NCBI GenBank assembly: GCA_902573085.1
Contig: CACGHY010000002.1
Coordinates: 4,925-68,924, forward strand
DNA length: 64,000 nucleotides
Reading direction: 5' to 3'
Source of the DNA: an uncultured Candidatus Poseidoniales archaeon
Lineage (GTDB): Archaea; Thermoplasmatota; Poseidoniia; Poseidoniales; Thalassarchaeaceae
The notes below the pieces were generated by a model. It saw only the letters and a program-made list of their open reading frames with translations. It searched no databases and had not been told where the DNA came from. Both the position numbers and the translations under genes were made by a program. Numbering within the stretch: position 1 is the stretch's first letter; the number at the start of each line of letters is the position of its first letter. Below, one piece after another: positions 8,013 to 59,997 of the stretch.

Positions 8013-8731
8013 TGCAAGCCCTCCAAACCACCAAATCGGGGCGCGTTGCCCTTTTTCTCCCAATAAGAGGGCTTCAAACCGAAACGCAGGTCACTCGACG
8101 ACAGTTGGCTCAGGAGTTTCTTCCTCTGCTCCAAAGCGTGGTCGAACTCCTCATCCATATACTGATTGCGAGGAGATCGGGCTATCTGGTTTATTATCTC
8201 GCTCATGAGGTCCGCACGTTCCTCGTTGGCCGTGTAGTAGTCCTCCTCGCTCTGGATGGCCCTATCGACCTCATCCTGACTCAACTGGCGTATCAGGTGA
8301 GGGGGTATCACCTTGTTCGACCTGCGTTGGTCCTTGGGTTCGTTGAACGCCGGTTCGTCCGGTCGGATGCGTGGTTCTGGCATGAAGAAGGGCGAATCCG
8401 GGTGTCGGTCGTCTATCTCTAGCACCACCGGCCCCCCGCCCTCCTCCTCGTCGTCCACCCAATCCTTCGCGCTAGTGATTGCGGCTTGCTTGCCACCCAT
8501 GGTGCTAAGGCTCGGTTTTGCCTTGTCCCCATAGAAGAAGTTCCAATTTCCTCCGAAAATGTCCTCCATCTGTTGGTCATCGAAGCCAAGTGCCTCCTGT
8601 ATCTCCTCCATGTCAAAATCATACAACTGTGGGGCGTGATCTGTCGGCTTCAACCCCTCTTGCATGATTTTCTTGGCATTTTCGGCTGTTGTGCCATGGT
8701 AAACCGGCATTTTCACGACTTCCCAAGCCAT
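8009..8731 (-). CDS. FDxAW-leader family protein (240 aa) with PARP/Tpt1-like ART-fold candidate; first gene of the array
   Basis: Track ORF 8009..8872. MAWEVVKMPVYHGTTAENAKKIMQEGLKPT starts at ATG 8731. An upstream GTG at 8749 would give MGGAFSMAWEVVK, which aligns better with the leader. PVVLEIDD and KVIPPHLIRQL parallel 2656..3237. Confidence 0.5.
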   Translation of the reverse strand: MAWEVVKMPVYHGTTAENAKKIMQEGLKPTDHAPQLYDFDMEEIQEALGFDDQQMEDIFGGNWNFFYGDKAKPSLSTMGGKQAAITSAKDWVDDEEEGGGPVVLEIDDRHPDSPFFMPEPRIRPDEPAFNEPKDQRRSNKVIPPHLIRQLSQDEVDRAIQSEEDYYTANEERADLMSEIINQIARSPRNQYMDEEFDHALEQRKKLLSQLSSSDLRFGLKPSYWEKKGNAPRFGGLEGLQ

Positions 8732-8757
8732 GCTAAACGCTCCGCCCACGAATTTGG

Positions 8758-8961
8758 AAAAAAACCATGCTTTATCGCAGTTATGACAGCATTTTTCCCG
8801 AAAATTTTGGTCCGAGAAAAAAAACAGCAACGATTTTGGAGCGTTTTTGCCTTTTTCATCCCGATCGGGCAACCCTGACAGCCCTGACAGAAAAAAACCC
8901 GGAAATTGTCCGCCGAGCGTATGCGGTTAGGCCGGGGGGCTTCGCAGAAAAAAAAAAAAAA
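8758..8961 (+). repeat. Four phased poly(A) tracts, each preceded by G (G-A7, G-A8, G-A7, G-A14)
   Basis: A-runs at 8758-8764, 8817-8824, 8891-8897 and 8948-8961, with start-to-start spacing of 59, 74 and 57 bp. Confidence 0.8.
8873..8890 (+). repeat. Perfect tandem 9-mer CCCTGACAG x2, abutting the third A-tract
   Basis: 8873-8881 and 8882-8890 are identical, followed by AAAAAAA. Confidence 0.85.
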
Positions 8962-9045
8962 TTCCATGCCTAATTTTCGCATGGCTCCGGCGACCCGGAG
9001 GGGAGCCGGGGGGCCACGCATTGGCGGAGGGGGCGGCGGGCTGTA

Positions 9046-9268
9046 CGCCCACCACCCGATGCGCTCCGATGGCATCCGATACGGGGCGATGGGGCATCCC
9101 ACACACGCCCACCACATCCACCCGCATCCACCCACATCAACGGCCATCGGCGGGGGGCCGGGGAGGAGGCGTGGAGGGGGCATGGAGCGGGCCTATCGCC
9201 ACCTCCCACCACCCACCATCGGCCACTGTCTATCAATGCCCATCGGAGGCTATCGCCACGCCCACCAC
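9046..9268 (+). repeat. C-rich iterons: CGCCCACCAC x3 perfect plus one single-mismatch copy; a 19-20 nt unit CTATCGCCAC-[C/-]-[T/G]CCCACCAC occurs twice
   Basis: The perfect 10-mer occurs at 9046-9055, 9106-9115 and 9259-9268, with CTCCCACCAC at 9203-9212. CTATCGCCAC occurs at 9193-9202 and 9250-9259. A degenerate CCCCACCAC lies at 9534-9542. Confidence 0.8.
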
Positions 9269-9431
9269 CGACCTCCCACATCGCCCGCCATCGACCCCCA
9301 TTTTTTCCGGATCGCCCGCCACATCACACGCCGTCGCGCTGATGGTGGTGGGATGACCGGAGAGGGGTGCGGACGGGGGTTAGCCACAGCCCGCTTCGGA
9401 TGGTGCAATTGGCATACAAATAGCAGACAAT

Positions 9432-9457
9432 TAGACACTAGACTAGACAACTTAGAC
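9432..9457 (+). repeat. Cluster of four TAGAC pentamers
   Basis: TAGAC at 9432, 9439, 9444 and 9453, within ttagacactagactagacaacttagact. Confidence 0.7.
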
Positions 9458-9751
9458 TATACAACAGAAGACTGACCTGAGAATACGTTTCGGAGGGTAG
9501 GGGTATCGACCTTTGTCTGTTGTCTCCCATCCACCCCACCACGCCCCCAGAACCGTTGCACCAAGGCCCTGTTTCGGTGTCTGTGGATAGAAGACATGGG
9601 TGTGTCGGATGTCTGCTGAAATCGCACCACGTCTAGCCCCGATCTGGTCCCGTCCAAAACCGAGCCACTCACACGGGGGAAAGGGTGGGACTCAAATAGT
9701 CCCCCCACTACCGAGACACTACCGGCAATGACCGGACGGAAGTGAAAAAGT

Positions 9752-12700
9752 ATGAAGAATGCAATGAGAACAGCAATGATGACCGCCCTTCTGGTAGTGC
9801 TAATCAGCACCCAGAACGTAGTCACCGAGGAGACAGCAATCCCCTCGGCAGACAGCGAGATGAACACCGAGATTGCAATTGTCGGAGGCCTCTATGACCT
9901 AGCCCCGAAGAGTCGTCTTAGGCCATCGGCCAGACAGGCCCAGAACCACAACCGGAGGGTACAGATTCTCCGAGACATGGGACTCATCCAGAGCCGATCC
10001 AATGGATGGCCTAGATTAGCCGTTCTAGGGCTTGTTCTAGCCCTTGGACTACTACACCCTGCTCTGGGTCTAGTCGGAGCCGTAGGAGCGGTTCTGGAGG
10101 CCCCAGAGACTACCATGGAGCATGACCCCACCAACCCAGAGACTATCGAGAAGATGAAGGCAGACCACGCCGCTAGGCCAGAGTGGTTGAAGGCCATCAA
10201 GGACAAGGCCCTAGACCAGATGTGGGAAACCTTCGGACCCCTCCTAGAGGGTAGCCTCCCATCATGGCAGAAGCCTTGGAAGATGGTCATGAATGGCATA
10301 GAATACACCGTCAGCAGACCAGTAAACGCCCTGACCGGGAGAGCATACAAGGGGGCCAATATCTTCACCCTATCAGGCCGATTCTATCCGGTCTGGGCCA
10401 CCCAGAAGCAGGTCAATCAGATAGCCCGGAAACTCAAGATTGAGTTGGTCTGGGACGAGGATTACCAGACCGATTACAAGGAGAACCCCGGCTCATACAT
10501 GGTCGATGTGGATGGAGAGATGAAGCCCATAATCAAGGACTCATTTGAGAGAAATGGAGAGCAGAGAGCGATCTGGGTTCCATTCCTCAAGACCTTCTGG
10601 GTCGAGGCCAAGGACGCCTCTGGAAACGTGATAATGGACCCCAAGACCGGGAAGGCCAAGAAGAAGCGAATCCAGAAGGCCCAGAAGGGTCTAGGAGGCA
10701 TGACAGTCGGTAAGGAGGCATTGGTCTGGAACATCGAGGACATCAACCTTCCAACAGACCGTGTGCTAGAGATTGTCCCAGACTTTGAGAACACTCAACC
10801 CAAGACTCCGGTCAAGGAGGATATACCCGTAGTCGAAGGGGCCAAGACTCTTGTCGATTCAATCCTGAATAACCTCACAGGTCTGAGATACAAAGAGGCC
10901 CCAAACAGGGCCTTCTATTCCCCTGCTCAGGACTACATATCCATGCCCCCGGCAGGGACGTTCAAGGACAACGGTGTAACGGCTCTGGAGGCCTTCGCGG
11001 CAACCCTAGCCCATGAGGCCGCTCATGCCACAGGACATCGCCTGAGACTCGCTAGAGCCATGGGAAATCCATTCGGGTCCAAGGGCTATGCGAGGGAAGA
11101 GTTGGTCGCTGAATTGGCCGCTATGATGGTAATTAGAGCATGGGGCATGAATGACGTAGCCCCACAGCACGGAGCATACCTGAAATCATGGGCCACCAAG
11201 TATGTCGGTTCACCCGATCCGGAGAATCCCGATGTGTGGATGGACTCATGCCGTGGAGTGTTGAAGGAGGCCGCTAACGCCTCTGAGTGGATTCTCTCTG
11301 GAATGCCAGAGTGGTTCAAGGGAGCCAAGACCACCGAGGGCCAAGAGATTGAGGAGGAGAAGCCCATGCCCGCTAACGCGGCTTCCATGGACATCTCAGA
11401 CCTGCCTTCTGGGTATCTATTCAGAGCGATGGCACAGGACAACGGGGGGGGCAGAGATGCCCCCTCCCAATGTTGCTCTGGATGCTCCGATGACTCTGGA
11501 GAAACCATCACGATTGAGTGGAATATCAACACCCTGAATGCCCCCGGCTTTGAGAAGATGGCAAAGAGAATCCAGAGGGCATTTGACCGCCGTGGATTGA
11601 CCTTTGAGTATGAGGTCAAGGATGCCGTCTGGGTCACTGAGATGCGCTCCCTCTATGGTGTCGCCGCCGATGCCGCCAGAGCGCGAGGTGATCCAACCGA
11701 GGTCGAATTCAGAGTCATGAGAACCCCTGTCTCTGTGACCCATTCTCCGCTCACTGACAAGGGATACGAGGCCATGGCTACCCTAGTGCCATTTGACCCC
11801 TCTGTGACGCCTCTGACGGACACAGAGATGCTCATCAGACCCATACCCACCACAGAGGAGAATGAGGACGATAGGAACCTTTGGATTAGCGAGCAATTGG
11901 CTAAGAGATACGGCCATGGAAATGCGATCGCATATGACCCAACAGTCTGTGACCATTGTGACCAGAGAAAGAGCAATCGAAAGAAACTGGTTCTGGTCCG
12001 AGATACCAACAACGCCGATGCTGATGCTCTGGTGATTGGTTCGTCCTGCCTCTATGACTACACTGGAGTGGACCCCGATATGCTAGAGAAACTGTTCACC
12101 ATCAGGGCGAATCACAGCCCCTACGAGGGCATGGAAACCGACCCTCTATCATGGAGGAAAAACATTGCCAGAATGGAGATAACCGAGTTCGTGGATTTGG
12201 TGGGAGAGAATGCCGCTATCTTCGGTTCATACAGGAGAGGTCTAGGAGGCACGGCCATGGGCCAGTGGATGGGATACACAGTCAAGGAGTATATCTCTGA
12301 TTTCGATAGGTGGGGGAAGCCGATTGACACGACCGCCGCTTACAGGATTGTCTCCAATCCAAGGCCCAAGTACGACAACCCGAACGGACCTCAGATTATC
12401 GAGAGGCCACCGACTTACGAGGCAGTCCATGTAGGGGGCATCAGGAAGTGGGTTCTGGATGCTCTTGAGGCCTCGGTAAAGGAGAACCAGACCGACACCT
12501 TCGGTCGCACCCTAGCGACCGTCCAGAGAGCCGGATATGTGACTTACAAGACAGCCAATTTTGTGGCCGGTTCGTCCTCCAGATATTGGAAGGAGACAAC
12601 ATCCTACACCAAGGAAATCAGGGACGCCGCGAAGTCCACAGATCTGACTGCCTTCCCTGCTCAGGCAGGGACCAAGTGGACCGGGAATCTGGTTGCGACC

Positions 12701-15700
12701 ATTGCCGATATTCGATGGTTCGACGATCGGTTCAATCCGGGCGTCCAGAAGGCCATTGTGACGTTCGTGACCAATGAGCATAGGCTCAAGACGTTCTCTA
12801 GTGCCAAGTGGACCCAGAGCATCAAGAAGGGCCAACAAGTGACCATCACCGGATTCACGGCCAAGAAGACCGAGGACTACCAAGGACAAGGTAGTCTGGT
12901 GGTGACATACCTAAACTTCGGGGAGGCCCCTGCGGCCTCCCTGAACGCTGTTGGAGCCTTCGGATTGGTTCCGGCACTACTAGACCCCTCTATGGTGTCT
13001 ATCGCCGCTCTGGGAGCGGCTATGGTAGTGGGAGTCGTAACTGCCGGTCGGAATGATGATGATGAGGGCATTTTTAGTTACACCACAATCAATTTTGAAC
13101 AGGCCCACCAATGGTTGGATAACCTCCCTCCATGGATTGAGCCATCCCATGCCGAGGTCTATGACAACCACCAGAGAATGTATGCGAAGCATGGTCTGGC
13201 TTGCATGATGTTTGTCTTCTGGAACCGGGGCGTTTCGACCACCAGATACCCGGATGGAATCATTCAGCACGTCGTAGTTCAAGACCCAGATTTTGAGGCT
13301 GACACACAGCGTCCTCATTGGCATGGCATTCAGGACTTGTGGATTCACGCATGGACCGATTGGGATTTGGTCTTGTATGAACAGGGATGGATGAACATTG
13401 ACGAGAAGGGCAACCGGATTACTGTGGAGGAGTCTAAGTTGCGAGCCGTTGGAGCCATGGGATTCATCCCGGCACTACTAGACCCATCCATGGCCTCTAT
13501 GGTCGCTCTAGGCGTCGCTATGGTGGTCGGGGTAGTCGGTAGGACCAAGACGACGGAGGAGCCAACCTCATGCGTCCCTGCTTGCATAGCAGAGGAATAC
13601 GATCCAGAAGGCCCCTCCTTCGGCAACGATAGCGGAGAGGTCAGGGGTCAGCACTTCGATACCTGCCACAACCTAGAGGAGATGGTGAGCGAGTGCGTGG
13701 GTGAAGACCCATACACCGGACGACTAGAGCATATCCACTACTCCAGAATCAAGTGCAACTGCCTTGAGATAGCCATGGATTGGTATGAGGAGTCCGAGTT
13801 TGTCAGAGGGGTTCTGAAAGACGAGGGAGTCGGCCCATTGACCAATGGCGGACACTTAGCAGAGAGTAGTATAGTCGCTGATTCGTATGAGGACTTGGAG
13901 CGAATGAAGCACCCTGAACGCTTCGATATGTTCGGAGATAGGATTGAGGAAATAGACCCCGGCTTGCCTAACGCGGATGAGAAATTGCTTCAATGCAAAT
14001 CGTGCGGTGCATGGTCAATAATGACGCCATTCACAGACGCCGATGGAGAACCCAATCTGGTATGCGAGGCTCTGGATGAGGATGAGGTTGAATGCGGACA
14101 CATCTATTGGGGCATGGGGGCCTTCTCTCTGCTTCCGGCACTACTAGACCCTAGCCTGACCACTCTCGTGGCTCTGGGCGTGGCTATGGTAGCAGGAACG
14201 GTCCGCCTAAGCGATTTGGACAAGAGGAAAATCCCCTTTGAAACGGAGGGGGTCAATGTCCAGACATTGAAGCAGGGTGTGTCCCCACGGCAAGAAGCAG
14301 GACGGGTCTGGAAGACCATGCTAACGGGAGGAGAGCAGGAGATTCTGGATGGACATCTCTCCGACTACATCACAATCCGAAACGGGGGGTCTTCTCGCTA
14401 TGCAATCAGCAGATGCTCGTTCATGGATACTACTCTGACTCTGGCCGCATCGGTCGAGGAGCATAATGATGAAAGAGCAGTCTTCCGTGGTTGCAAGGAA
14501 TTCAGCCTGAGAGCGTATCTGGTATCGGAACATAGGAGGAAATACGATCGCATCACCACTGATGTTGCGACTGTCAATTTCAGCCTTAAAGTGAAGGATG
14601 TCGATGCTGACGGTGACGAGGTATATCGCCATAGTGACCCGGATTACAACCTAGAGGATGTCGTGGATAGGGCTGTAATGGTGACAACCGGACTAAGCGA
14701 GATGAAGATTGATGTCGATAGCACATGGAGGTCGAACAATGTAGTTACGGTGGACGCGAAATTGGTCGGTCTGGTGAGCAAGTTGAACGACATTGTGAGT
14801 GACAATCTGTATGAGGCATTCGGACTCAAGGAGGACATGGAGAAGGACACCATAGCGGTGTCATCCCCGGACGGAAAGGTCACAGCGAGCAACCCGGACA
14901 ATTGGCTATACAGAGCCTTCACCACGCCATGGGTTCTCTGTGGTGCATCGGACGTTTCTGACCTCGCGGAGGAGGCTTACGAGGCATGGGAGAGCCTGAA
15001 ACAAGCAAAGGAGTTCCACAAGGTCACAGAGGCTTCTCAGAAGGCCCTAGACACCATAGAGAGGTATGGGGGCCTCCCGGTCGAGAAGGACGCCCCAGAG
15101 GCGGCATGGGAGAAACTATCGGCCAGTAAGATTGAGACTCTTACTGAGGACTTGGAATTGACCCGAAACAATTGGGGAGACAGCAGGATGACTGATGATG
15201 TGCAGAGGGCCATCAAGGGCAACAAACACACAGGAGCATTGGCTTACATTACAAGAAAGGCAAACCGCAGGTGGTCCGATGCTATCAAGAAGTCAGGATC
15301 AGTCAGACTGCTGAAAACCTTCTTCGATAGAGACAACATTCTGGATAGGGCCAAGGAGGACTTTGCAGAGGCCATCAAGGCATACGTCAAGACCTGTGAG
15401 GAGAAAGAGGTTTGTTGGACGGAGGCAATTGTCCAACAAGGACGGTTCCAGAGTATGATGGGTCACTTCCGAGTGATGCTAGAGAATGACTTCTCCGAAC
15501 CCATCATGAGAATCTGGGCTAATGGGAGATACGATTCTCCTGTCGATGCTAGAATCTGCCGAGTCGGATTCATGTGGAATCTTGAACCAACGACGATTGA
15601 CATATTTGAGGATTGTTCGCCTGATACTATGTGGCAGGATAGGGCATTCGACTCTGACTCTGATAGTGAACACTTGAGAGTCGCTTATCGTGTCTTTGAG

Positions 15701-16027
15701 GCGAACCTCATTGAAAAGGGGCTGTTAAAGAGAACCGATAGCGGTGGCGGTGTCTCTGTCGTGTATGACGGAGAAACGCTGTCGTCGTCCGACGCCCATG
15801 CCATAGAGGATGCATTGGGAGACATGAGGAGAACGACGAGATTCATGAGTGAACATCTCATTGCTCTCCATGACTTCCAGAGCGATGCCAAGAGTGCGAG
15901 TTTTGGTGCGATGACCGACAATATCAGGGACGAAGATGCCATCCCTGACTTCATACAGGGGAAGGTTGTAACCAAGTTCCGAGACATCATGGACGACAGA
16001 CTGCCGACTGAGGAGGTGGAAGCATGA
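9752..16027 (+). CDS. Giant polyvalent protein (2091 aa): hydrophobic N-terminus, ArdC-like ssDNA-binding N-domain plus HExxH zincin domain, then about 1600 aa of uncharacterised modules separated by hydrophobic PALLDPS segments
   Basis: Single uninterrupted ORF. The start is preceded by GGAAGTGAAAAA (9738-9749). Internal motifs are listed in the sub-features, and the stop overlaps the next ATG (ATGA). Confidence 0.8.
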   Translation: MKNAMRTAMMTALLVVLISTQNVVTEETAIPSADSEMNTEIAIVGGLYDLAPKSRLRPSARQAQNHNRRVQILRDMGLIQSRSNGWPRLAVLGLVLALGLLHPALGLVGAVGAVLEAPETTMEHDPTNPETIEKMKADHAARPEWLKAIKDKALDQMWETFGPLLEGSLPSWQKPWKMVMNGIEYTVSRPVNALTGRAYKGANIFTLSGRFYPVWATQKQVNQIARKLKIELVWDEDYQTDYKENPGSYMVDVDGEMKPIIKDSFERNGEQRAIWVPFLKTFWVEAKDASGNVIMDPKTGKAKKKRIQKAQKGLGGMTVGKEALVWNIEDINLPTDRVLEIVPDFENTQPKTPVKEDIPVVEGAKTLVDSILNNLTGLRYKEAPNRAFYSPAQDYISMPPAGTFKDNGVTALEAFAATLAHEAAHATGHRLRLARAMGNPFGSKGYAREELVAELAAMMVIRAWGMNDVAPQHGAYLKSWATKYVGSPDPENPDVWMDSCRGVLKEAANASEWILSGMPEWFKGAKTTEGQEIEEEKPMPANAASMDISDLPSGYLFRAMAQDNGGGRDAPSQCCSGCSDDSGETITIEWNINTLNAPGFEKMAKRIQRAFDRRGLTFEYEVKDAVWVTEMRSLYGVAADAARARGDPTEVEFRVMRTPVSVTHSPLTDKGYEAMATLVPFDPSVTPLTDTEMLIRPIPTTEENEDDRNLWISEQLAKRYGHGNAIAYDPTVCDHCDQRKSNRKKLVLVRDTNNADADALVIGSSCLYDYTGVDPDMLEKLFTIRANHSPYEGMETDPLSWRKNIARMEITEFVDLVGENAAIFGSYRRGLGGTAMGQWMGYTVKEYISDFDRWGKPIDTTAAYRIVSNPRPKYDNPNGPQIIERPPTYEAVHVGGIRKWVLDALEASVKENQTDTFGRTLATVQRAGYVTYKTANFVAGSSSRYWKETTSYTKEIRDAAKSTDLTAFPAQAGTKWTGNLVATIADIRWFDDRFNPGVQKAIVTFVTNEHRLKTFSSAKWTQSIKKGQQVTITGFTAKKTEDYQGQGSLVVTYLNFGEAPAASLNAVGAFGLVPALLDPSMVSIAALGAAMVVGVVTAGRNDDDEGIFSYTTINFEQAHQWLDNLPPWIEPSHAEVYDNHQRMYAKHGLACMMFVFWNRGVSTTRYPDGIIQHVVVQDPDFEADTQRPHWHGIQDLWIHAWTDWDLVLYEQGWMNIDEKGNRITVEESKLRAVGAMGFIPALLDPSMASMVALGVAMVVGVVGRTKTTEEPTSCVPACIAEEYDPEGPSFGNDSGEVRGQHFDTCHNLEEMVSECVGEDPYTGRLEHIHYSRIKCNCLEIAMDWYEESEFVRGVLKDEGVGPLTNGGHLAESSIVADSYEDLERMKHPERFDMFGDRIEEIDPGLPNADEKLLQCKSCGAWSIMTPFTDADGEPNLVCEALDEDEVECGHIYWGMGAFSLLPALLDPSLTTLVALGVAMVAGTVRLSDLDKRKIPFETEGVNVQTLKQGVSPRQEAGRVWKTMLTGGEQEILDGHLSDYITIRNGGSSRYAISRCSFMDTTLTLAASVEEHNDERAVFRGCKEFSLRAYLVSEHRRKYDRITTDVATVNFSLKVKDVDADGDEVYRHSDPDYNLEDVVDRAVMVTTGLSEMKIDVDSTWRSNNVVTVDAKLVGLVSKLNDIVSDNLYEAFGLKEDMEKDTIAVSSPDGKVTASNPDNWLYRAFTTPWVLCGASDVSDLAEEAYEAWESLKQAKEFHKVTEASQKALDTIERYGGLPVEKDAPEAAWEKLSASKIETLTEDLELTRNNWGDSRMTDDVQRAIKGNKHTGALAYITRKANRRWSDAIKKSGSVRLLKTFFDRDNILDRAKEDFAEAIKAYVKTCEEKEVCWTEAIVQQGRFQSMMGHFRVMLENDFSEPIMRIWANGRYDSPVDARICRVGFMWNLEPTTIDIFEDCSPDTMWQDRAFDSDSDSEHLRVAYRVFEANLIEKGLLKRTDSGGGVSVVYDGETLSSSDAHAIEDALGDMRRTTRFMSEHLIALHDFQSDAKSASFGAMTDNIRDEDAIPDFIQGKVVTKFRDIMDDRLPTEEVEA
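10013..10102 (+). repeat. Degenerate N-terminal copy of the hydrophobic module (RLAVLGLVLALGLLHPALGLVGAVGAVLEA)
   Basis: The DNA ggactactacaccct resembles ggcactactagaccc of the three strong copies. It is a hydrophobic segment of about 30 aa. Confidence 0.4.
10169..11191 (+). other. ArdC-like antirestriction module (N-terminal ssDNA-binding domain plus zincin metalloprotease-like domain)
   Basis: LPSWQKPWKM...ALTGRAYKGANIFTL...VWATQKQV fits the ArdC-N/DUF1738 pattern. TLAHEAAHATGHRLRLAR...GYAREELVAELAAMMV (HEAAH at 11012-11026) fits the ArdC C-terminal pattern. Confidence 0.75.
12947..13051 (+). repeat. PALLDPS hydrophobic module, copy 1 (aa 1066-1100)
   Basis: AVGAFGLVPALLDPSMVSIAALGAAMVVGVVTAGR, followed by NDDDDE. 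Contains the 17-mer CCGGCACTACTAGACCC at 12971-12987. Confidence 0.85.
13445..13543 (+). repeat. PALLDPS hydrophobic module, copy 2 (aa 1232-1264)
   Basis: AVGAMGFIPALLDPSMASMVALGVAMVVGVVGR, followed by TKTTEE. The same 17-mer lies at 13469-13485. Confidence 0.85.
14111..14206 (+). repeat. PALLDPS hydrophobic module, copy 3 (aa 1454-1485)
   Basis: GMGAFSLLPALLDPSLTTLVALGVAMVAGTVR, followed by LSDLDKRK. The same 17-mer lies at 14135-14151. Confidence 0.85.
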
Positions 16028-16203
16028 GCGATTGCGACTACGGACGTGTCGAGTGTCCAACCTGTGGGGAGTTGGTCGATGAGGATGACATAGGAGCGTC
16101 TAGCATAGACCATGACCTGTACGACAGGACAGGGGAGGAGGAGTGGATAGAGCCTGTGAATCCAAATCAGTGCAAGTGGTGCGAGTGGGGGCCAGAAGCA
16201 TGA
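16024..16203 (+). CDS. 59-aa zinc-ribbon protein (below the ORF-track size cut-off)
   Basis: ATG 16024 overlaps the stop of the giant ORF (ATGA). MSDCDYGRVECPTCGELVDEDD...NQCKWCEWGPEA has CxxC...CxxC. Its stop overlaps the next ATG at 16200. Confidence 0.6.
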   Translation: MSDCDYGRVECPTCGELVDEDDIGASSIDHDLYDRTGEEEWIEPVNPNQCKWCEWGPEA

Positions 16204-16373
16204 CCGGGGACCACGCCAAGATTCACGATGCATATGAGGTCATTCTCGCGGCTAGGAAAAAGTGGAGTGACACTTTGATGGAGGCAGAGGAAGTGGAGGA
16301 GTTATTCCTTGAGACACTACGCGATGTCGAGTATGCCCTATTCCCTGAGATACATGAGGAGGTGAAGGCATGA
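16200..16373 (+). CDS. Hypothetical acidic protein (57 aa)
   Basis: In-frame 3' part of track ORF 16143..16373. ATG 16200 forms an ATGA overlap with the upstream stop. MTGDHAKIHDAYEV... Confidence 0.5.
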   Translation: MTGDHAKIHDAYEVILAARKKWSDTLMEAEEVEELFLETLRDVEYALFPEIHEEVKA

Positions 16374-16660
16374 CCGAGGAGTGGACGCCAACGGAGTTCG
16401 ATGAGGACGTGGAGGTAGTCATAGAGGAGCGCATGACGCTCGCTGATGGCAGGGTCATGGTTCTGAACATAGAGGACAGGATCGTGACCATGACGCACCC
16501 TCTGACGGGCCATACCATGACCGGCCCCATGACATGGATCGGGAAGGAGTTCTCTAGGCTAGATTTGGTTGTGGGCCACATCAAGATGGCCGACCAGATA
16601 CAGGCAGGTATGCAGAGGGCGACCGACTACGAGGACGAGAACCTAGAGAGTGAAGAGTGA
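16370..16660 (+). CDS. Hypothetical protein (96 aa)
   Basis: Track ORF with an ATGA overlap at its start. Acidic C-terminus LESEE. Confidence 0.6.
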   Translation: MTEEWTPTEFDEDVEVVIEERMTLADGRVMVLNIEDRIVTMTHPLTGHTMTGPMTWIGKEFSRLDLVVGHIKMADQIQAGMQRATDYEDENLESEE

Positions 16661-16699
16661 GTGGATAGAGGATTTATACAGAGAGAGGGTCGAGGGAGC

Positions 16700-16969
16700 A
16701 TGATGAGTGAGCCGATCGAGTTTACTTTCGTCATAGTGGTCTTTGAATCAACAGAGCCGTCATATCGCGTCATAGGAGAGATTCTGAGCGAGGATGGGGC
16801 CAAGGCTACGGTCACGGCTGATTTCGACAGTCTGGAGGCGGCAGAGGGGTGCTTTGCGGCTCATGAGGAGACTGCTGTCAAGCGTGATTTCAGGTGCATA
16901 TCCCGCAACGCTATTCCCAAGGATGAGGACTCATGGATTACCATGTCGAGATGGAGGTCTAACAAATGA
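16700..16969 (+). CDS. Hypothetical protein (89 aa)
   Basis: Track ORF 16661..16969 starts at GTG. The in-frame ATG at 16700 is preceded by GAGGGAG, so the start is uncertain. Confidence 0.5.
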   Translation: MMSEPIEFTFVIVVFESTEPSYRVIGEILSEDGAKATVTADFDSLEAAEGCFAAHEETAVKRDFRCISRNAIPKDEDSWITMSRWRSNK

Positions 16970-27969: not shown

Positions 27970-28321
27970 TCGTGATGTAATCATTCTCGCATCGTCGATA
28001 AGAGGGAGTATCAAGTGCGTTCAGACCACAGAGCGCAAATGTGGTTACATTATCAGACCAGAATTGAGGATACCCGTAATCAAAGCAGGAGTGTCACGAG
28101 CCTTGAACGACAAAGGCATAGAGGTCAAGAACGTGTATTCGGACACTGAGGAGATTACCAAGATACTGAACATCATCAACGGCCTAGAGGACTTGTCGAA
28201 CACGACAGAAGGTCTGGAGATGGTCAGAAGGTACAATGGTGTCCTGTCTCAACCAGAAACTCATGCAGACGTTGAGAACGCATTGGAATTGCTTGAAAGC
28301 GTCGGCGGGATTATAGGGTAG
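27944..28321 (+). CDS. Hypothetical protein (125 aa)
   Basis: Track ORF 27902..28321. The in-frame ATG at 27944 (MSKILNQ...) is preceded by GGAGGAG. Confidence 0.5.
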   Translation: MSKILNQNDRDVIILASSIRGSIKCVQTTERKCGYIIRPELRIPVIKAGVSRALNDKGIEVKNVYSDTEEITKILNIINGLEDLSNTTEGLEMVRRYNGVLSQPETHADVENALELLESVGGIIG

Positions 28322-28356
28322 TCCTCACACGTCGGACTCCCATTGAGGGATTAGTT

Positions 28357-31206: not shown

Positions 31207-32184
31207 GTGTCGGCATTTAGTCCACCAAAGAGATACCCCGTACCGGGAAGGCCGGGACTCTTCTCTTCATACCAATGGCATCCGGGCATGAACGACGATG
31301 TGATATTGAGAGTGTCGAAGTCATCATTGGGTGATTTCGGTTTCTGCCAACAGCAGTCATTCATCAAGAGAGTCCTTGGTATCAAGTCTGAGGAGACTGA
31401 GGCTATGATTCGCGGGTCCAATGTTCATGACTCAATCGAACGCTTCTATCAAGACGTAAGCGTATCTTACGCCGCATCCATGAAGTCATACGGATTGGAG
31501 AACGTCGAGAAGTATTTCATGGAGTTTGTTGGTGAGGGCGATCCGAAGCGCGGTCCCTATGAATTGGATGAGGAACAGCACTTGACGAAATACATGAAAC
31601 TTGAAGCAGAGCGATTCATGAATTGTGCTGACCCTCACTTCTTCCTTCCGATTGGCAATGAGGTAAGTCTGGACGCGGTAGTCACCATAGAGGGACAGTT
31701 AGTTCACCTCACAGGAATCGTGGACAGGTTGTTCGCTGATGCCGAGGGAATACCTCATGTTCATGAGTTGAAGACAGGTATGTGGAAAGACCACAAGCCC
31801 TCAAAGTGGAGTAACATGAGAGAGGAGATGGCATACTATGTCATGCTCTTGAAAGAATGCGACCATGAGGTTCTGGGTGGTCTGGAGTGCGAGCGATGGG
31901 GGTGGGACCACACAGGAGGCTATGCGTCTAAGGAGGGCGAGGAGCCGGACGCGGTGTGGCGTGGTGTGGAGGATGTCCGGCAGAAGGACATGGACTCCAT
32001 GATGGATAAATTGAGATTACTGGTGCGGACGTATAATCAATACAAGGGCGATTTAGATGGTAGGGCCTTTGCATTGATTGATTTCTGGAGAGCGCAGGAG
32101 GTCATTTGTGAACCTTGGTGCGATCTTAAGGGATATTGTCCTCGCTATGAGAAGATTCTATGGCCCTACCCTCAAGAGGGCTAG
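31207..32184 (+). CDS. Cas4/RecB-family PD-(D/E)xK nuclease with Cys cluster (325 aa)
   Basis: GIVDRLF...HVHELKTG gives the D...ExK core. An N-terminal Cys (GFCQQQ) and the C-terminal CEPWCDLKGYCPRY form a four-Cys Fe-S-type arrangement. Confidence 0.6.
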   Translation: MSAFSPPKRYPVPGRPGLFSSYQWHPGMNDDVILRVSKSSLGDFGFCQQQSFIKRVLGIKSEETEAMIRGSNVHDSIERFYQDVSVSYAASMKSYGLENVEKYFMEFVGEGDPKRGPYELDEEQHLTKYMKLEAERFMNCADPHFFLPIGNEVSLDAVVTIEGQLVHLTGIVDRLFADAEGIPHVHELKTGMWKDHKPSKWSNMREEMAYYVMLLKECDHEVLGGLECERWGWDHTGGYASKEGEEPDAVWRGVEDVRQKDMDSMMDKLRLLVRTYNQYKGDLDGRAFALIDFWRAQEVICEPWCDLKGYCPRYEKILWPYPQEG

Positions 32185-32186
32185 GT

Positions 32187-33281
32187 ATGTCGCACTTGTT
32201 TGCGGACTTCCCACGCGAAGTAAACATGAGGACGAGGAAGGTCGTCCGCAACATGGCAGAGTTGCAGAGGTACATAGACAGCATGAACGGGAGGGATAAC
32301 CTGACCACGACAGTATATGGGTTCCGTCATTTGAAGACCAAGGGCAACCGATGCGAATACTCAACGGCAATCGTGCCACACTTTGTCATCGACCTTGACA
32401 AAGGCAGGGCAGAGGAGGTGTTGCCAGAGGGGACCGAGGACGAATGGGGAGAGAGATGCACCCGTGACACCCTGACACTTACAGAGCATCTCAAGAAGGA
32501 AGACATACGTCATGCGACATGGTACTCTGGCGGTGGATTCCACATCTGGGTCATGCTATCTGAGATACACACGTTGCCACCGGACGAGTTGGCTAACCTA
32601 CTATTCTCTGGAAGGGTCATTATCAACAAGTGGATTAAGAACATGGATTTGGTCACAATCGATCCTGTCGTATCATTCAGACCCGATAGGCATATCAGAA
32701 TCCCAAATTCATACAATTTCAAAAGGAAGAAGTGGTCTATACCAGTCTCCACCAAGGATTTGCAAGATGGTTGGACAACAATCAGCGACAAGGCAGAAAC
32801 GCAATCAGGTGGCATGAGGGCATACGGCAAGAATGGCTTGGAAATCGAGATTGTCAGTCATGACCCAAACATGACAGGACTGACAGGATTGTTTCAAAAG
32901 TTCGACGCGGCGGAAATTGGGGTGTCGGCAAGGAACCTAAATGGTGTTCCTATTCTCCCATGCCTTGACGCCGCCTGTTGCACCAAGGGGAGCAACCCAC
33001 CACACAAACCACGATCATACCTCATGATGTACCTCATGGACTACAAGAGGGACTTTGCTAGACCGCCACATGAGAGCAAGGTTGGCAATGCAGAGGTAGT
33101 CCAATGGACTCATGAAGTGATAGCAGGTTTGGAGTGGGCAGATTACAACCCAAAGATTACTCAGCAGATGCTCGTTCATGGTGCAAGCAAGCATTACCTA
33201 ACGCCTTCCTGTGCGAGGATATATAGCGAAGGACTTTGCCTTGGCAAATGCCCCATGTTCGATGGCAAGGGAGTGGAATGA
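32187..33281 (+). CDS. Archaeo-eukaryotic primase (AEP, PriS-like), about 364 aa
   Basis: Motif I HFVIDLDKG (DxD), motif II YSGGGFHIWV, motif III DRHIRIPNSYNFKRK. Track ORF 32160..33281; I chose the ATG at 32187, 2 nt after the upstream stop. Confidence 0.7.
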   Translation: MSHLFADFPREVNMRTRKVVRNMAELQRYIDSMNGRDNLTTTVYGFRHLKTKGNRCEYSTAIVPHFVIDLDKGRAEEVLPEGTEDEWGERCTRDTLTLTEHLKKEDIRHATWYSGGGFHIWVMLSEIHTLPPDELANLLFSGRVIINKWIKNMDLVTIDPVVSFRPDRHIRIPNSYNFKRKKWSIPVSTKDLQDGWTTISDKAETQSGGMRAYGKNGLEIEIVSHDPNMTGLTGLFQKFDAAEIGVSARNLNGVPILPCLDAACCTKGSNPPHKPRSYLMMYLMDYKRDFARPPHESKVGNAEVVQWTHEVIAGLEWADYNPKITQQMLVHGASKHYLTPSCARIYSEGLCLGKCPMFDGKGVE

Positions 33282-34384: not shown

Positions 34385-35833
34385 ATGATAGAGAGGGGGT
34401 TGGCTTCGACAAGAAGAGAGTGGAATGATTACAGCGTGGTAAACTCTCCCTATGAGGGCAGTAACAAACTCAGGCAGTACGTCGAGAGGTTCGACACTCT
34501 CTCTTTCTTCAACCAGTATGCAGGTATGCTCTCTTACTTTTACATCCTTGGACAGATGCTCGCTCCATATGTGAGGATACCAATACACGGTGCTTACATC
34601 GACTCCCGACTTCATGTCTTCTGGATACAGGCCTCAAGATCGGGGAAGTCGATAGCATACGAATTCACAGCCAAGATATTGAAGTTGTGCGGCATAGAGA
34701 GCGAGAAGTTTAGTGCGGGGTCAGACTCTAAGTTGATTGGTTCCGTAATCGAGACTCCGAAAGTGGATGAGGATGGGAAGAGAGTGGGAGGGGTTGATTT
34801 TGAAGTGGTTCCCGGTCTTCTGAATGGCTACAAGACTCTGCTGTTCGATGAGGGTAGCATACTCCTTGATGATTCCAAATCGTATTTCAGCCAGAAGATT
34901 CTATTCTTGCAACAGGCCATGGCTCCCATCGGTAGCGAAACCAACGTGCTTGTGAATCACTTGAAGGGAGCGTCGATATACACGCCATCTGGTATCTCTC
35001 TATGGGCTACTACCTTCCCACCAAAGGACATCATGCACCACGTCCTTGAGAAAGGGTTCTTCCAGAGAGTGTTTCTGTACCAGAACGATGTCAATCTTGA
35101 GACACGGCAGACCACTAGCGAGCATCGAATGTCTGGTGTCTATGTTCCGGTTCCCGAACAGGTCTGGTCGTATGAGGAAATATCCAATTGGATTGTCGGC
35201 ATGAGAGATGATGTTAGGGACAGGCTGTTCACCGTAGCAGGAATAGACCAAGACCAATGGGATTCAATGTCTGAGGAGCAGAGAGAGGAGGTCGCTGTGA
35301 ATCACAGCCATATGCTATTCTCGATAGGGCCTAACTACCACGCCGCTCTGTTAAGTGCGGTTGATGATTACTATGATCTTGTCAAGACTGTATCGGACGG
35401 TAACGTGAGAGAGACTGCAATATCCTTCTTGCCGAACGTCGAGAATTACACTATCATATTCAGCAACATGATTGCCGCTACCATGGGGACCAATGTGATT
35501 ACTGCTGAACACATCTCCATGGCGTCAGAAATAATCTATGACAATCTTCACAATCTAATCATATGGTTGGAGCAGAAGCGAGACTACAAGGCATCTAGGG
35601 AAAGACAGGCTGATGTCAGAGCATGGAAACAGGCGTTCGCGGGTTGTAAGAGACAAGTCCACGATCGCACCAAGAAGGAGGTTGTGAGAAAGACTGAGTT
35701 ACAGGCTAGATATGCCGCGCTCAATGCTGTAAGCGTCAAGACCGCCGAAAGGAGACTAAGCAAACTCATCGAGAACAAACTGTCGGTCATGGTTAAGGAA
35801 GGGAGAAACGTGTACGTTTCCTTGGAGGTCTGA
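34385..35833 (+). CDS. Divergent AAA+ ATPase, MCM-like/Mg-chelatase-like core; candidate replicative helicase (482 aa)
   Basis: Walker A WIQASRSGKSIA. Walker B TLLFDEGSIL. The motif order (FSAGSDSKLIGSV, VPGLLNGY, LQQAMAPIGSETNVLVNHLKGASIYTPSGISLWATTFP) parallels the MCM AAA+ core. By eye only. Confidence 0.4.
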   Translation: MIERGLASTRREWNDYSVVNSPYEGSNKLRQYVERFDTLSFFNQYAGMLSYFYILGQMLAPYVRIPIHGAYIDSRLHVFWIQASRSGKSIAYEFTAKILKLCGIESEKFSAGSDSKLIGSVIETPKVDEDGKRVGGVDFEVVPGLLNGYKTLLFDEGSILLDDSKSYFSQKILFLQQAMAPIGSETNVLVNHLKGASIYTPSGISLWATTFPPKDIMHHVLEKGFFQRVFLYQNDVNLETRQTTSEHRMSGVYVPVPEQVWSYEEISNWIVGMRDDVRDRLFTVAGIDQDQWDSMSEEQREEVAVNHSHMLFSIGPNYHAALLSAVDDYYDLVKTVSDGNVRETAISFLPNVENYTIIFSNMIAATMGTNVITAEHISMASEIIYDNLHNLIIWLEQKRDYKASRERQADVRAWKQAFAGCKRQVHDRTKKEVVRKTELQARYAALNAVSVKTAERRLSKLIENKLSVMVKEGRNVYVSLEV

Positions 35834-37226: not shown

Positions 37227-37405
37227 GCTTCCACCTTCAACCTTGGCTTCGCCTTCTTCCAGACATCACCACACAGGGGACATTCCCATAGAAAGATTCT
37301 GTCTCTCGATCCGGCATAGAAGCCATTGATTCTTATTGCTAACACACGGTTCTCACACTTGGGACAGTCTTGACTTATCTTGTCACGGTAATGGTTAGTC
37401 TTCAT
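37223..37405 (-). CDS. 60-aa zinc-ribbon protein
   Basis: CPKCENRV...CPLCGDVW. Overlaps both neighbours by 4 nt. Confidence 0.55.
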   Translation of the reverse strand: MKTNHYRDKISQDCPKCENRVLAIRINGFYAGSRDRIFLWECPLCGDVWKKAKPRLKVEA

Positions 37406-38490
37406 CCAGTATGCCCCGCATGAACATAGGAGATTCTAACATGAGTCGGTGTGCCTGTGTATCCAAGAGAACCATTGACGGTCACTACGTTTGCAGATAT
37501 GGTGTAGTCTAGCCCTTGTATGAGGGTGGCGATGAAACGTGGTGTTCCCGACTTATACATCGCGACCTCGATAAGTTTGGTTGATGCCTCATCCTGAGAA
37601 CCGAGAGGGCTGTATTCCAATGTGAAGTTCTTCTGCGCTCCTGTGTATGTTCCTGTCAGTATGGATGTCCTGTGTGTCGGCGTTATCTGGTATGCCCCAC
37701 CTGCCCCTGCTTGGTTGATTCTCTGATCGGACTGATAGAACAGATGTGTGCCGCCGCTACCGTCAGGATGGTCGCCAAGTCCCGCAGGGTCACGGGCGAA
37801 GATGAATCCTAAGTCAGTAACAGGTAGGTTGGCTGTATTGTCCCCGGAGATGAAATTGTTCGCGGGCATTGCCGCGTTACCTGATGCGTTCACCAATGCA
37901 GAGACTGGTATTGGTCCCGGCCTGACGAAAACTCTCTTGTCTTCAAGAGATGCAATTCTCACCTCGTTGCCCGCATAGTGCAGACGTGCTGATGCGAGGA
38001 CGATGGTCTGGCGGGCGAGGTGGGCGGAGGGGGATTGGGGGTAGGCCCCACTCGACGTGTCTATGGCGTTCCCATACACGAAGCCTATGTTCCCCGTGAG
38101 GGTGGGATCGAAATACACCAAGAGGATTCTCTCGTGGTTGGCGGAGAGGGTGGGGGCCGTGCTACTGTTGTATGTGGCATACTGAGCCGTGACCGTGGCG
38201 GCATTGAGAGTCTGCGAGCCTATGGAATAGAACATACCATCGACGAGGATGGTCCCTGCCGCAATGACGATGGACTGGTTGCCTGATGTGGAGCAAGCGC
38301 AGTTGCCAGTCTGGGATGCGTTGCGCGAGCCTGAGTTGTAGTCGTTGCTGACGATAGGCACGACACCGTTCATGAGTCCGCGCTCGTTGAAGTTGGTCAG
38401 GGTGGGACTGGCTAGGACATCCGTATCCCTCAGTCCGTCCGTCTGGTATGACTGGTTGGCTGTCTCATGCCCTTGCCCTAGCCCTGCCAT
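37402..38490 (-). CDS. Tail-module structural protein, function unknown (362 aa)
   Basis: Track ORF with a strong SD (AGGAGGTG) 6 nt upstream of the ATG. The Gly/Ser/Thr/Asn/Ala-rich composition is typical of fibre or baseplate proteins. Confidence 0.6.
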   Translation of the reverse strand: MAGLGQGHETANQSYQTDGLRDTDVLASPTLTNFNERGLMNGVVPIVSNDYNSGSRNASQTGNCACSTSGNQSIVIAAGTILVDGMFYSIGSQTLNAATVTAQYATYNSSTAPTLSANHERILLVYFDPTLTGNIGFVYGNAIDTSSGAYPQSPSAHLARQTIVLASARLHYAGNEVRIASLEDKRVFVRPGPIPVSALVNASGNAAMPANNFISGDNTANLPVTDLGFIFARDPAGLGDHPDGSGGTHLFYQSDQRINQAGAGGAYQITPTHRTSILTGTYTGAQKNFTLEYSPLGSQDEASTKLIEVAMYKSGTPRFIATLIQGLDYTISANVVTVNGSLGYTGTPTHVRISYVHAGHTG

Positions 38491-38501
38491 CAGTCACACC
38501 T

Positions 38502-38524
38502 CCTGTCAGGACTGACAGGTTTTT
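38502..38524. promoter_or_regulatory. Perfect 8-bp inverted repeat CCTGTCAG-GA-CTGACAGG followed by T5 (top strand), between two minus-strand structural genes
   Basis: 38502-38509 pairs with 38512-38519, and TTTTT lies at 38520-38524. On the coding (minus) strand the hairpin sits immediately 5' of the AGGAGGTG SD of 37402..38490. Confidence 0.3.
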
Positions 38525-59947: not shown

Positions 59948-59997
59948 TATCCTAGTCCAGACATAAATGGTTCATAAAGATGTCAGTCCTAACAGGA

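Follow-up and report, generated by a model that had tools for sequence, protein, structure and literature searches.

What does a kilobase of DNA without genes do at the one point where the genes of a viral contig diverge? The DNA examined here (the window, 64 kb) is positions 4925-68924 of contig C2, part of a 1.16-Mb genome bin of 55 contigs; coordinates below are those of the window unless C2 is named. The element in question is region 8732-9751 (1,020 bp), which an initial annotation had taken for a candidate replication origin or master control region. Contig C2 (106,262 bp, without a terminal repeat) is viral; it represents a head-tailed virus that was binned with a small archaeal genome and encodes a tail-tube protein, a group II chaperonin, a portal protein (C2:88792-90288) and a large terminase (C2:91515-92933), and the archaeal 16S gene of the bin lies on a different contig. 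Genes point left between the start of C2 and 8731, right between 9752 and about 36.5 kb, and left once more over the rest of the contig. The region is the sole divergent switch and the sole long gene-free gap of C2, which bears out the initial annotation on this point, and it occurs as a single copy in the genome. To its right begins a giant gene encoding an ArdC-type protein. Judged from sequence comparison, the region is a functional, conserved, non-coding module, which we tentatively read as a bidirectional promoter, operator and terminator hub that also provides the giant gene with a long leader.

Conservation of a non-coding module

Region 8732-9751 is non-coding. Substitutions relative to related viruses fall evenly over the three codon phases without 3-base periodicity, open frames differ across lineages in strand, frame and length, and near-identical copies differ by an 11-nt unit. 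A coding gene was rejected on these grounds, in agreement with the initial annotation, which had seen no convincing open reading frame (ORF). The ORFs that gene callers place in the region are spurious (120-209 aa, on either strand depending on the copy).

Copies of the module were found through homologues of the giant protein (65-39% identity; L005-L009) and through one such spurious ORF (L130-L133). The ten copies fall into about five lineages, namely the window, L005, L006/L133, the L007 family and the distant L009, and the assemblies that carry them are ERZ27257685, ERZ27258171, ERZ27258178, ERZ976282, ERZ23498662 and SRR18164391. The module lies directly upstream of the giant gene in 10 of 10 copies, and its nucleotide identity is equal to or higher than that of the gene, as measured on the first 1.8 kb of the latter. 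Between the window and L007, identity is 73% over the module and 80% in its leader (right) block, against 54% in the giant gene; between L006 and L007 it is 93% against 62%. The L009 module is only about 50% identical overall, yet its motif positions are retained. Near-invariant blocks comprise TATGACAGCATTTTTCC, CTGACAGCCCTGACAG-A7, GAGCGTATGCGGTTAGGCC, CTTCGCAG-A14-TTCCATGCCT, CGGCGACCCGGAGGGGAGCCGGG, CGGATCGCCCGCCACATC, GGGGTTAGC and TGTTTCGGTGTCTGTGGATAG, while conservation is lowest, and indels are most frequent, in the core. The leftward neighbor varies by lineage and may be a leader-family gene, a zinc-ribbon gene, a C5 methylase gene or another gene; since the giant gene is constant, it is this gene to which the module is linked. 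Conservation in related genomes had been proposed as a check in the initial annotation, and the presence of the module in all five lineages found, with its motif positions kept, indicates that the region is working control DNA.

In L006 and L007, the module and the first ~140 codons of the giant gene are almost identical and the sequences then diverge, suggesting a recombination break inside the giant gene.

Further searches bounded this distribution. A 21-mer and a degenerate two-gap pattern that fits the window and L005-L009 had no match in viral, JGI metagenome or GTDB genome contigs, a 14-mer search returned chance matches only, single-protein locus searches yielded no further copies, and the phage DNA collection gave no match. 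A second homologue search, started from the distant relative, returned only unrelated context without such a module. Neither the flanking gene nor the region was found in genomes of the host genus and order (DNA search of 400 genomes, protein search of 60 genomes). No match of at least 16 nt exists between the region and any host contig, and an attachment site was rejected for this reason.

Repeats, hairpins and the parts of the module

The A-runs, tandem copy, repeats and TAGAC pentamers listed in the initial annotation are all present where it placed them and lie far beyond chance. The four A-runs, each preceded by G, have start-to-start spacings of 59, 74 and 57 bp, and only one other run of at least seven A occurs in the whole window. 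As these spacings are not multiples of ~10.5 bp, the phased bending that had been suggested is not supported; minus-strand U-run terminators or TATA-like elements offer a better reading of the runs. The two CCCTGACAG copies (8873-8890) are 100% identical. The word CGCCCACCAC occurs at 9046, 9106 and 9259, with one-mismatch copies at 9203 and 9313; allowing at most one mismatch, the window holds 13 matches (3.8 expected), five of which are in the region. The word CTATCGCCAC occurs at 9193 and 9250, 57 bp apart, and TAGAC at 9432, 9439, 9444 and 9453. GTCT/AGAC reaches its contig maximum in 9400-9751, with 13 occurrences (mean 3.0, sd 1.8).

The core has a 10-bp periodicity (lag-10 autocorrelation z = 6.8 in the window and z = 5-7 across four lineages), and the region holds all four of the lag-10 windows that score highest on the 106-kb contig. 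The CGATG/CATCG and RGACA words are short (5-6 nt), degenerate and variable in number, with conserved positions; those of the RGACA repeats are conserved column by column in five lineages. In L009, the core word is CAATG/CATTG in place of CGATG/CATCG. ATCGG plus CCGAT number 0 in L009 versus 9-16 elsewhere, and CATTG plus CAATG number 11 versus 1-3, the switch of repeat word being a concerted change over many copies.

In composition, the core (8991-9405) is 70% G+C versus 50-55% in the flanks, in line with the initial annotation, which had called it much richer in GC than the coding flanks. The C-richness that it attributed to the whole core applies only to two blocks, 9040-9150 (C 44%, G 22%) and 9193-9337 (C 50%, G 15%), which are interspersed with and followed by G-rich patches at 9151-9192 (G 67%) and 9338-9405 (G 49%). 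Adjoining the core is an A+T island of 36% G+C, flanked by the G-rich stretch 9338-9405 and the C-rich stretch 9526-9548, which are partly complementary (pair I7). A second non-coding stretch rich in repeats was not found in the window; an apparent gap at 27970-28356 is coding-like and repeat-poor. The coordinates of all parts are given in Table 1.

Table 1. Features of region 8732-9751 and the adjoining giant gene. The region is divided into four parts: A, 8732-8990; B, 8991-9405; C, 9406-9475; D, 9476-9751. A point marks features given no strand.
Feature	Position	Strand	Remarks
T7 run (A7 on plus strand)	8758-8764	-	The first leftward gene starts ~30 nt further on, with its ATG at 8731
TATGACAGCATTTTTCC box	8782-8798	.	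Left edge of the conserved module; 5 of 5 lineages
T8 run (A8 on plus strand)	8817-8824	-	Kept in four close lineages
Two adjacent CTGNCAG palindromes (CCCTGACAG x2), then A7 (8891-8897)	8873-8897	.	Operator-like
GAGCGTATGCGGTTAGGCC, 19-mer	8915-8933	.	Nearly invariant in every lineage, including distant L009
Hairpin CCAUGC-N9-GCAUGG (8964-8984), AA, U14 (8948-8961)	8948-8984	-	Terminator-like for leftward RNA
CGGCGACCCGGAGGGGAGCCGGG conserved block	8988-9010	.	Left edge of the G+C-rich core
10-bp-periodic array	9056-9150	.	CGATG/CGATA x4 at 9057, 9067, 9077 and 9087; positions conserved
Inverse ATCC/ATCA/ATCG x5	9096-9146	.	In phase with the CGATG array
G-rich patch, tandem 10-11-nt units	9151-9192	.	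Length and copy number differ among near-identical relatives
Second C-rich block	9193-9337	.	20-nt unit twice (9193, 9250), CCATCG/ATCG copies, T6 at 9301-9306, conserved CGGATCGCCCGCCACATC
G-rich block GCGCTGATGGTGGTGGGATGACCGG...GGGGGTTAGC, short hairpin, GGTGC	9338-9405	.	Kept in 5 of 5 lineages
A+T island with RGACA direct repeats	9406-9475	.	Repeats at 9425, 9433, 9440, 9445, 9454 and 9469
Conserved giant-gene leader, ~270 nt	9476-9751	+	Most conserved part
TGTCTGTTGTCT in leader	9514-9525	+	Leader also holds inverted RGACA/TGTCY sites
Small leader hairpins	9553-9566, 9592-9605, 9722-9735	+	
Shine-Dalgarno (SD)-like GGAAGTGA	9738-9745	+	7 nt before the ATG at 9752, in all lineages
Giant gene, ArdC-type	9752-16027	+	2091-aa protein with ArdC-N and zincin domains

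Two sets of small hairpins differ in the strand on which they pair. The minus-strand hairpin of part A has the form CCRUGC-N9-GCAUGG followed by two bases and then U13-14 in 9 of 10 copies, with energies of -5 to -9 kcal/mol. Its minus-strand substitutions, A to G and C to U, preserve pairing as G.U, while on the plus strand they would give A.C mismatches. A consensus terminator scan missed this hairpin because its loop is 9 nt. With its stem-loop and U-run, 8948-8984 is by sequence a terminator-like element for leftward RNA. In the leader, the three hairpins are paired in 85.5% of cells versus 75% in shuffles and 29-36% when slid, and six pairs changed on both sides versus 1.5 expected, with G.U pairs that are valid on the plus strand only; these scores are inflated since the hairpins were chosen by eye from the same sequences, and we take the pairing as a hint and not as proof. 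The minus-strand terminator-like and plus-strand leader signals suggest that transcription leaves the A+T island in both directions.

A large structured RNA was rejected. Rfam 15 gave no match in the window (best sub-threshold score 21 bits against a cut-off of 49.5), the leader fold scored z = +1.4 and +0.8 against dinucleotide shuffles, and the core folds beat shuffles barely if at all, with z between -0.2 and -2.2 over both strands of five lineages. RNAalifold covariation terms were positive (+11.4, +4.6 and +2.3), and many predicted pairs are broken in divergent lineages.

At the left edge of the region, the A7 run at 8758-8764 is present only in the window, L005 and L133, whose left flanks are alike; on the minus strand, it is a candidate TATA-like element or last back-up terminator. 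The two CTGNCAG copies agree in their center base, which is A in L005 and the window but T in the L007 family. The TATGACAGC box (8783-8790) holds ATG-ACA-GC, with which the leftward leader-array genes begin (M-T-A), but on the opposite strand. Gene starts with ATG ACA GCx occur at 1869, 4025 and others of this array, and TGACAGC is seen again at 8876 and 8885. In relatives, the TATGACAGC box is not the start of any conserved ORF, the open lengths being 30, 14, 64 and 4 codons. Integron-like boxes between the array genes were considered and rejected, as the recurring CTGTCAT represents shared first codons.

Several observations concern words of the module elsewhere on the contig or in relatives. 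Perfect CTGNCAGNNCTGNCAG occurs on the contig only in the region and at the intergenic site 38503-38518, where it forms a perfect inverted repeat, CCTGTCAG-GA-CTGACAGG, followed by T5. The genes on either side of this site are leftward, with the SD of gene 37402-38490 closely downstream of it, and the site may be an operator of a viral regulator; a degenerate CTGNCAGNNCTGNCAG copy at 59980-59995 is also intergenic. The central G-rich patch of the L007 family consists of GATCGGCGGGG units (L007 9370-9430, L008 590-665, L131 and L132), and their copy number varies among these relatives. L007-lineage modules hold 11-12 GATC sites versus ~2 per kb on the contig, and the G-rich patch of this lineage adjoins a C5 DNA methylase gene; the window virus encodes a D12-class (adenine) methyltransferase at C2:105159-106229.

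The neighboring genes also have features of their own. The 240-aa protein that adjoins the region on the left (8009-8731) has a paralogue in the same array at 2656-3237, with 33% identity over 158 residues, and no relatives among 60 related host genomes. Three near-identical hydrophobic segments (...PALLDPS...ALG.AMV.G.V...) are present in the giant protein, with a similar one near its N-terminus. A different giant protein was found in L136, a 148-kb ENA contig, where positions 4001-16954 encode a 4317-aa ArdC/zincin/UvrD polyvalent protein fused to a prohead-protease (S78) domain. It directly follows the terminase and portal genes, and no comparable non-coding module precedes it; this arrangement would fit the idea that giant proteins are packed into the capsid. 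Outside the window, C2:1272-2138 encodes an HMGL-like protein (pyruvate carboxyltransferase/HMG-CoA lyase family; Pfam E = 1e-26), which may be an auxiliary metabolic gene.

Proposed transcription control and competing explanations

We favor, with reserve, the reading of the module as a transcription control hub, a cis-acting unit that would travel with the giant ArdC-type gene of a marine archaeal head-tailed virus. The A+T island with its RGACA sites, a candidate bidirectional promoter and/or unwinding element, would hold a back-to-back promoter pair together with operator sites. Rightward transcription would produce the giant-gene mRNA with its conserved leader, three small hairpins and ribosome-binding site. 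Leftward transcription would cross the G+C-rich repeat core and be halted by the hairpin and U14, with three further U-runs as back-up, and this stop would insulate the leftward array of variable cargo genes. The left edge of the module may supply this array with its own T-rich TATA-like element and CTGNCAG operator pair. The CGATG/CATCG arrays at 10-bp spacing could be sites for a viral DNA-binding protein that coats the core. These same features make the module the best candidate origin site, and the promoter and origin roles may coincide, as in polyomavirus control regions.

The following observations were counted in favor of the hub: conservation of a non-coding module that is always found with the giant gene; its position at the sole divergent switch and gap, to which A-runs of at least seven are nearly confined; the minus-strand hairpin with U13-14, the leader hairpins and the SD-like box; and the positionally kept RGACA/TGTCY sites, the rarity of two CTGNCAG copies and the 10-bp periodicity. 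Several points weigh on the other side. The host-genome promoter consensus gave a signal too weak to scan with, so that the promoter assignment draws on A+T content and position only. RNA starts and ends are predicted from the DNA alone, the repeat arrays come without an assigned binding protein, and 1 kb is long for promoters and operators by themselves. L009 has a AAATAAAT repeat in place of U14 and a 9-nt instead of a 10-nt period, and the statistics of the leader hairpins are weak, with about five lineages behind them.

A role primarily as a replication origin is possible but less probable, and it may coexist with a promoter role. The CGATG/CATCG and RGACA arrays would then bind an initiator or helicase loader, and the A+T island, between inverted G-rich and C-rich blocks, would serve as the unwinding element from which replication proceeds outward along both gene blocks. 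This reading draws on the arrays of short direct and inverted repeats with a 10-bp period, which are unique on the contig, on the concerted change of the repeat word in L009, on the A+T island beside a core of far higher G+C content, and on the single-copy position at the sole divergent point and sole long non-coding stretch. The virus may also start its own replication. A 373-aa protein (32160-33281) carries AEP primase motifs (VIDLD, SGGGFHIWV) and a 482-aa protein (34385-35833) Walker A/B-like, or P-loop ATPase, motifs (SRSGKS, LLFDEGS). Both identities are motif readings; searches of Pfam, PHROGs, NCBIfam and PDB sequences found nothing significant for either protein, and AlphaFold single-sequence models reached a predicted local distance difference test (pLDDT) score of 38 and 30. 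The primase-like gene is 22 kb from the repeats, however, the pair of genes lying 22-25 kb off, and no initiator family is encoded beside them, where the ArdC-type giant gene adjoins on one side and variable cargo genes on the other. The orc1/cdc6 model TIGR02928 matched host contigs C15 and C44 only and nothing on C2, and the flank of the host cdc6 gene offered no usable origin recognition box. The repeats are also very short and degenerate, and they lie in the least conserved part of the module. The GC skew, which the initial annotation had named as a check, does not help the origin: the cumulative G-C curve bottoms out at window position 10,064, ~300 bp past the right edge of the region, and peaks at 53,017, but all bins show a negative coding-strand skew at four-fold degenerate sites, and the fit leaves a replication term of about zero. 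The minimum therefore reflects the gene-strand switch only, and GC skew was rejected as origin evidence. The earlier proposal of an origin or master control region is supported in part: its gene-free, divergent setting stands and its conservation check came out positive, and the arguments from bending and skew fall away.

The remaining alternatives are less probable still. That the core encodes a functional leftward G-rich non-coding RNA of ~450 nt, running from ~9395 to the hairpin and U14, we consider unlikely; such an RNA might sponge up a protein with its repeated CGAUGG words, or prime replication as an R-loop. The conserved terminator-like hairpin with its wobble-compatible substitutions, a conserved GCACC-hairpin-GCUAACCCCC at the putative 5' end, and a minus-strand fold slightly more stable than shuffles in two lineages (z about -2.2) speak for it, whereas the missing Rfam family, the weak and inconsistent fold scores, the covariation terms and broken pairs, and a central G-rich patch whose length varies between near-identical genomes speak against it. 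Arrays of short repeats near a 10-bp period resemble parC-type centromeres and pac sites, and short phased repeats could wrap a small terminase or a ParR/ParB-type protein; a packaging site had been raised in the initial annotation as an alternative, next to a dense operator region. We judge a pac or partition site very unlikely. The large terminase and portal genes are far off (C2 88.8-92.9 kb), with the large terminase ~78 kb along the contig or ~28 kb away if the genome is circular, and neither the giant gene nor the seven leftward genes closest to the region matched a ParA, ParM or ParR/ParB family (Pfam, PHROG). Contigs of several relatives do end just left of the module, but it is internal in relatives of 83.6 kb and 64.6 kb, and C2 lacks a terminal repeat. 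The breaks are all at the border of the variable left flank, where assemblers break on strain variation, and they fit such variation, not genome ends. Functionless low-complexity DNA kept through recent common descent only is scarcely credible. The core does evolve by slippage of 10-11-nt units; against this, long blocks are near-invariant while the adjacent protein falls to 39% identity, and motif positions are kept even in L009.

Comparison with known systems

The kind of element is known, while its sequence family is undescribed in Rfam, the phage DNA collection and the literature searched, where we found nothing on cis-acting control sequences or origins for the abundant viruses that infect uncultured marine archaea. 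The module offers targets for transcript mapping and protein-binding tests that need no culture, namely the invariant blocks, three repeat systems, the terminator-like element and the leader. It also marks a fixed border beside which the virus exchanges presumed anti-defence genes, and metagenomes could be searched for such cargo with the module as anchor, for which the words GAGCGTATGYGGTTAGGCC and TGTTTCGGNGTCTGYGRATA are usable as search keys.

Among known systems, the origins of phage lambda and theta plasmids likewise place repeats beside an A+T-rich segment and A-runs. Their iterons are 17-22 bp, in contrast to the 5-6-nt words at a 10-bp period found here, and the module differs further in having no adjoining initiator gene and A-runs that are not helically phased. 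An archaeal virus region with palindromes, repeats and oligo(dT) is the Tind-Tlys region of the fusellovirus SSV1 of Sulfolobales, a terminator that has long been hypothesized, without proof, to be an origin (bioRxiv 10.64898/2026.06.17.732947). The module shares the palindromes, repeats, T-runs and terminator-like character of that region; the viruses and sequences are unrelated, however, and Tind-Tlys has a convergent layout with overlapping 3' ends and a low G+C content, while the module is divergent with a 70% G+C core.

The parC arrays bound by ribbon-helix-helix proteins (R1 ParR, pSM19035 omega) also consist of direct or inverted short repeats about one helical turn apart, and such arrays double as operator sites. 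Unlike them, the module has no partition genes beside it, and its repeats are more degenerate. Transcription-primed origins (ColE1 RNA II, T4 ori(uvsY) and the mitochondrial conserved sequence block, CSB) have a promoter followed by a strand-asymmetric G-rich transcript, and the module may be similar; in contrast to these origins, its G-rich and C-rich patches alternate, and the transcript and hybrid are purely inferred.

The polyomavirus control region, as in SV40, combines a bidirectional promoter and an origin in one gene-free stretch between divergent gene blocks. It works with the same kinds of parts as the module: pentamers in both orientations, an A/T tract and G+C-rich repeats ~10 bp apart. 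The likeness does not extend to sequence or protein homology; the host here is archaeal, the virus is tailed with a 106-kb contig, no large-T-like initiator was found, and the origin is only a candidate. As a long shot, the module could be an integrated control region of the polyomavirus style in an archaeal tailed virus, in which the island fires both ways, the leftward G-rich non-coding transcript, ending at the hairpin and U14, forms an RNA-DNA hybrid across the periodic core that primes or licenses replication, and the whole serves as a fixed platform and promoter for swapped anti-defence cargo.

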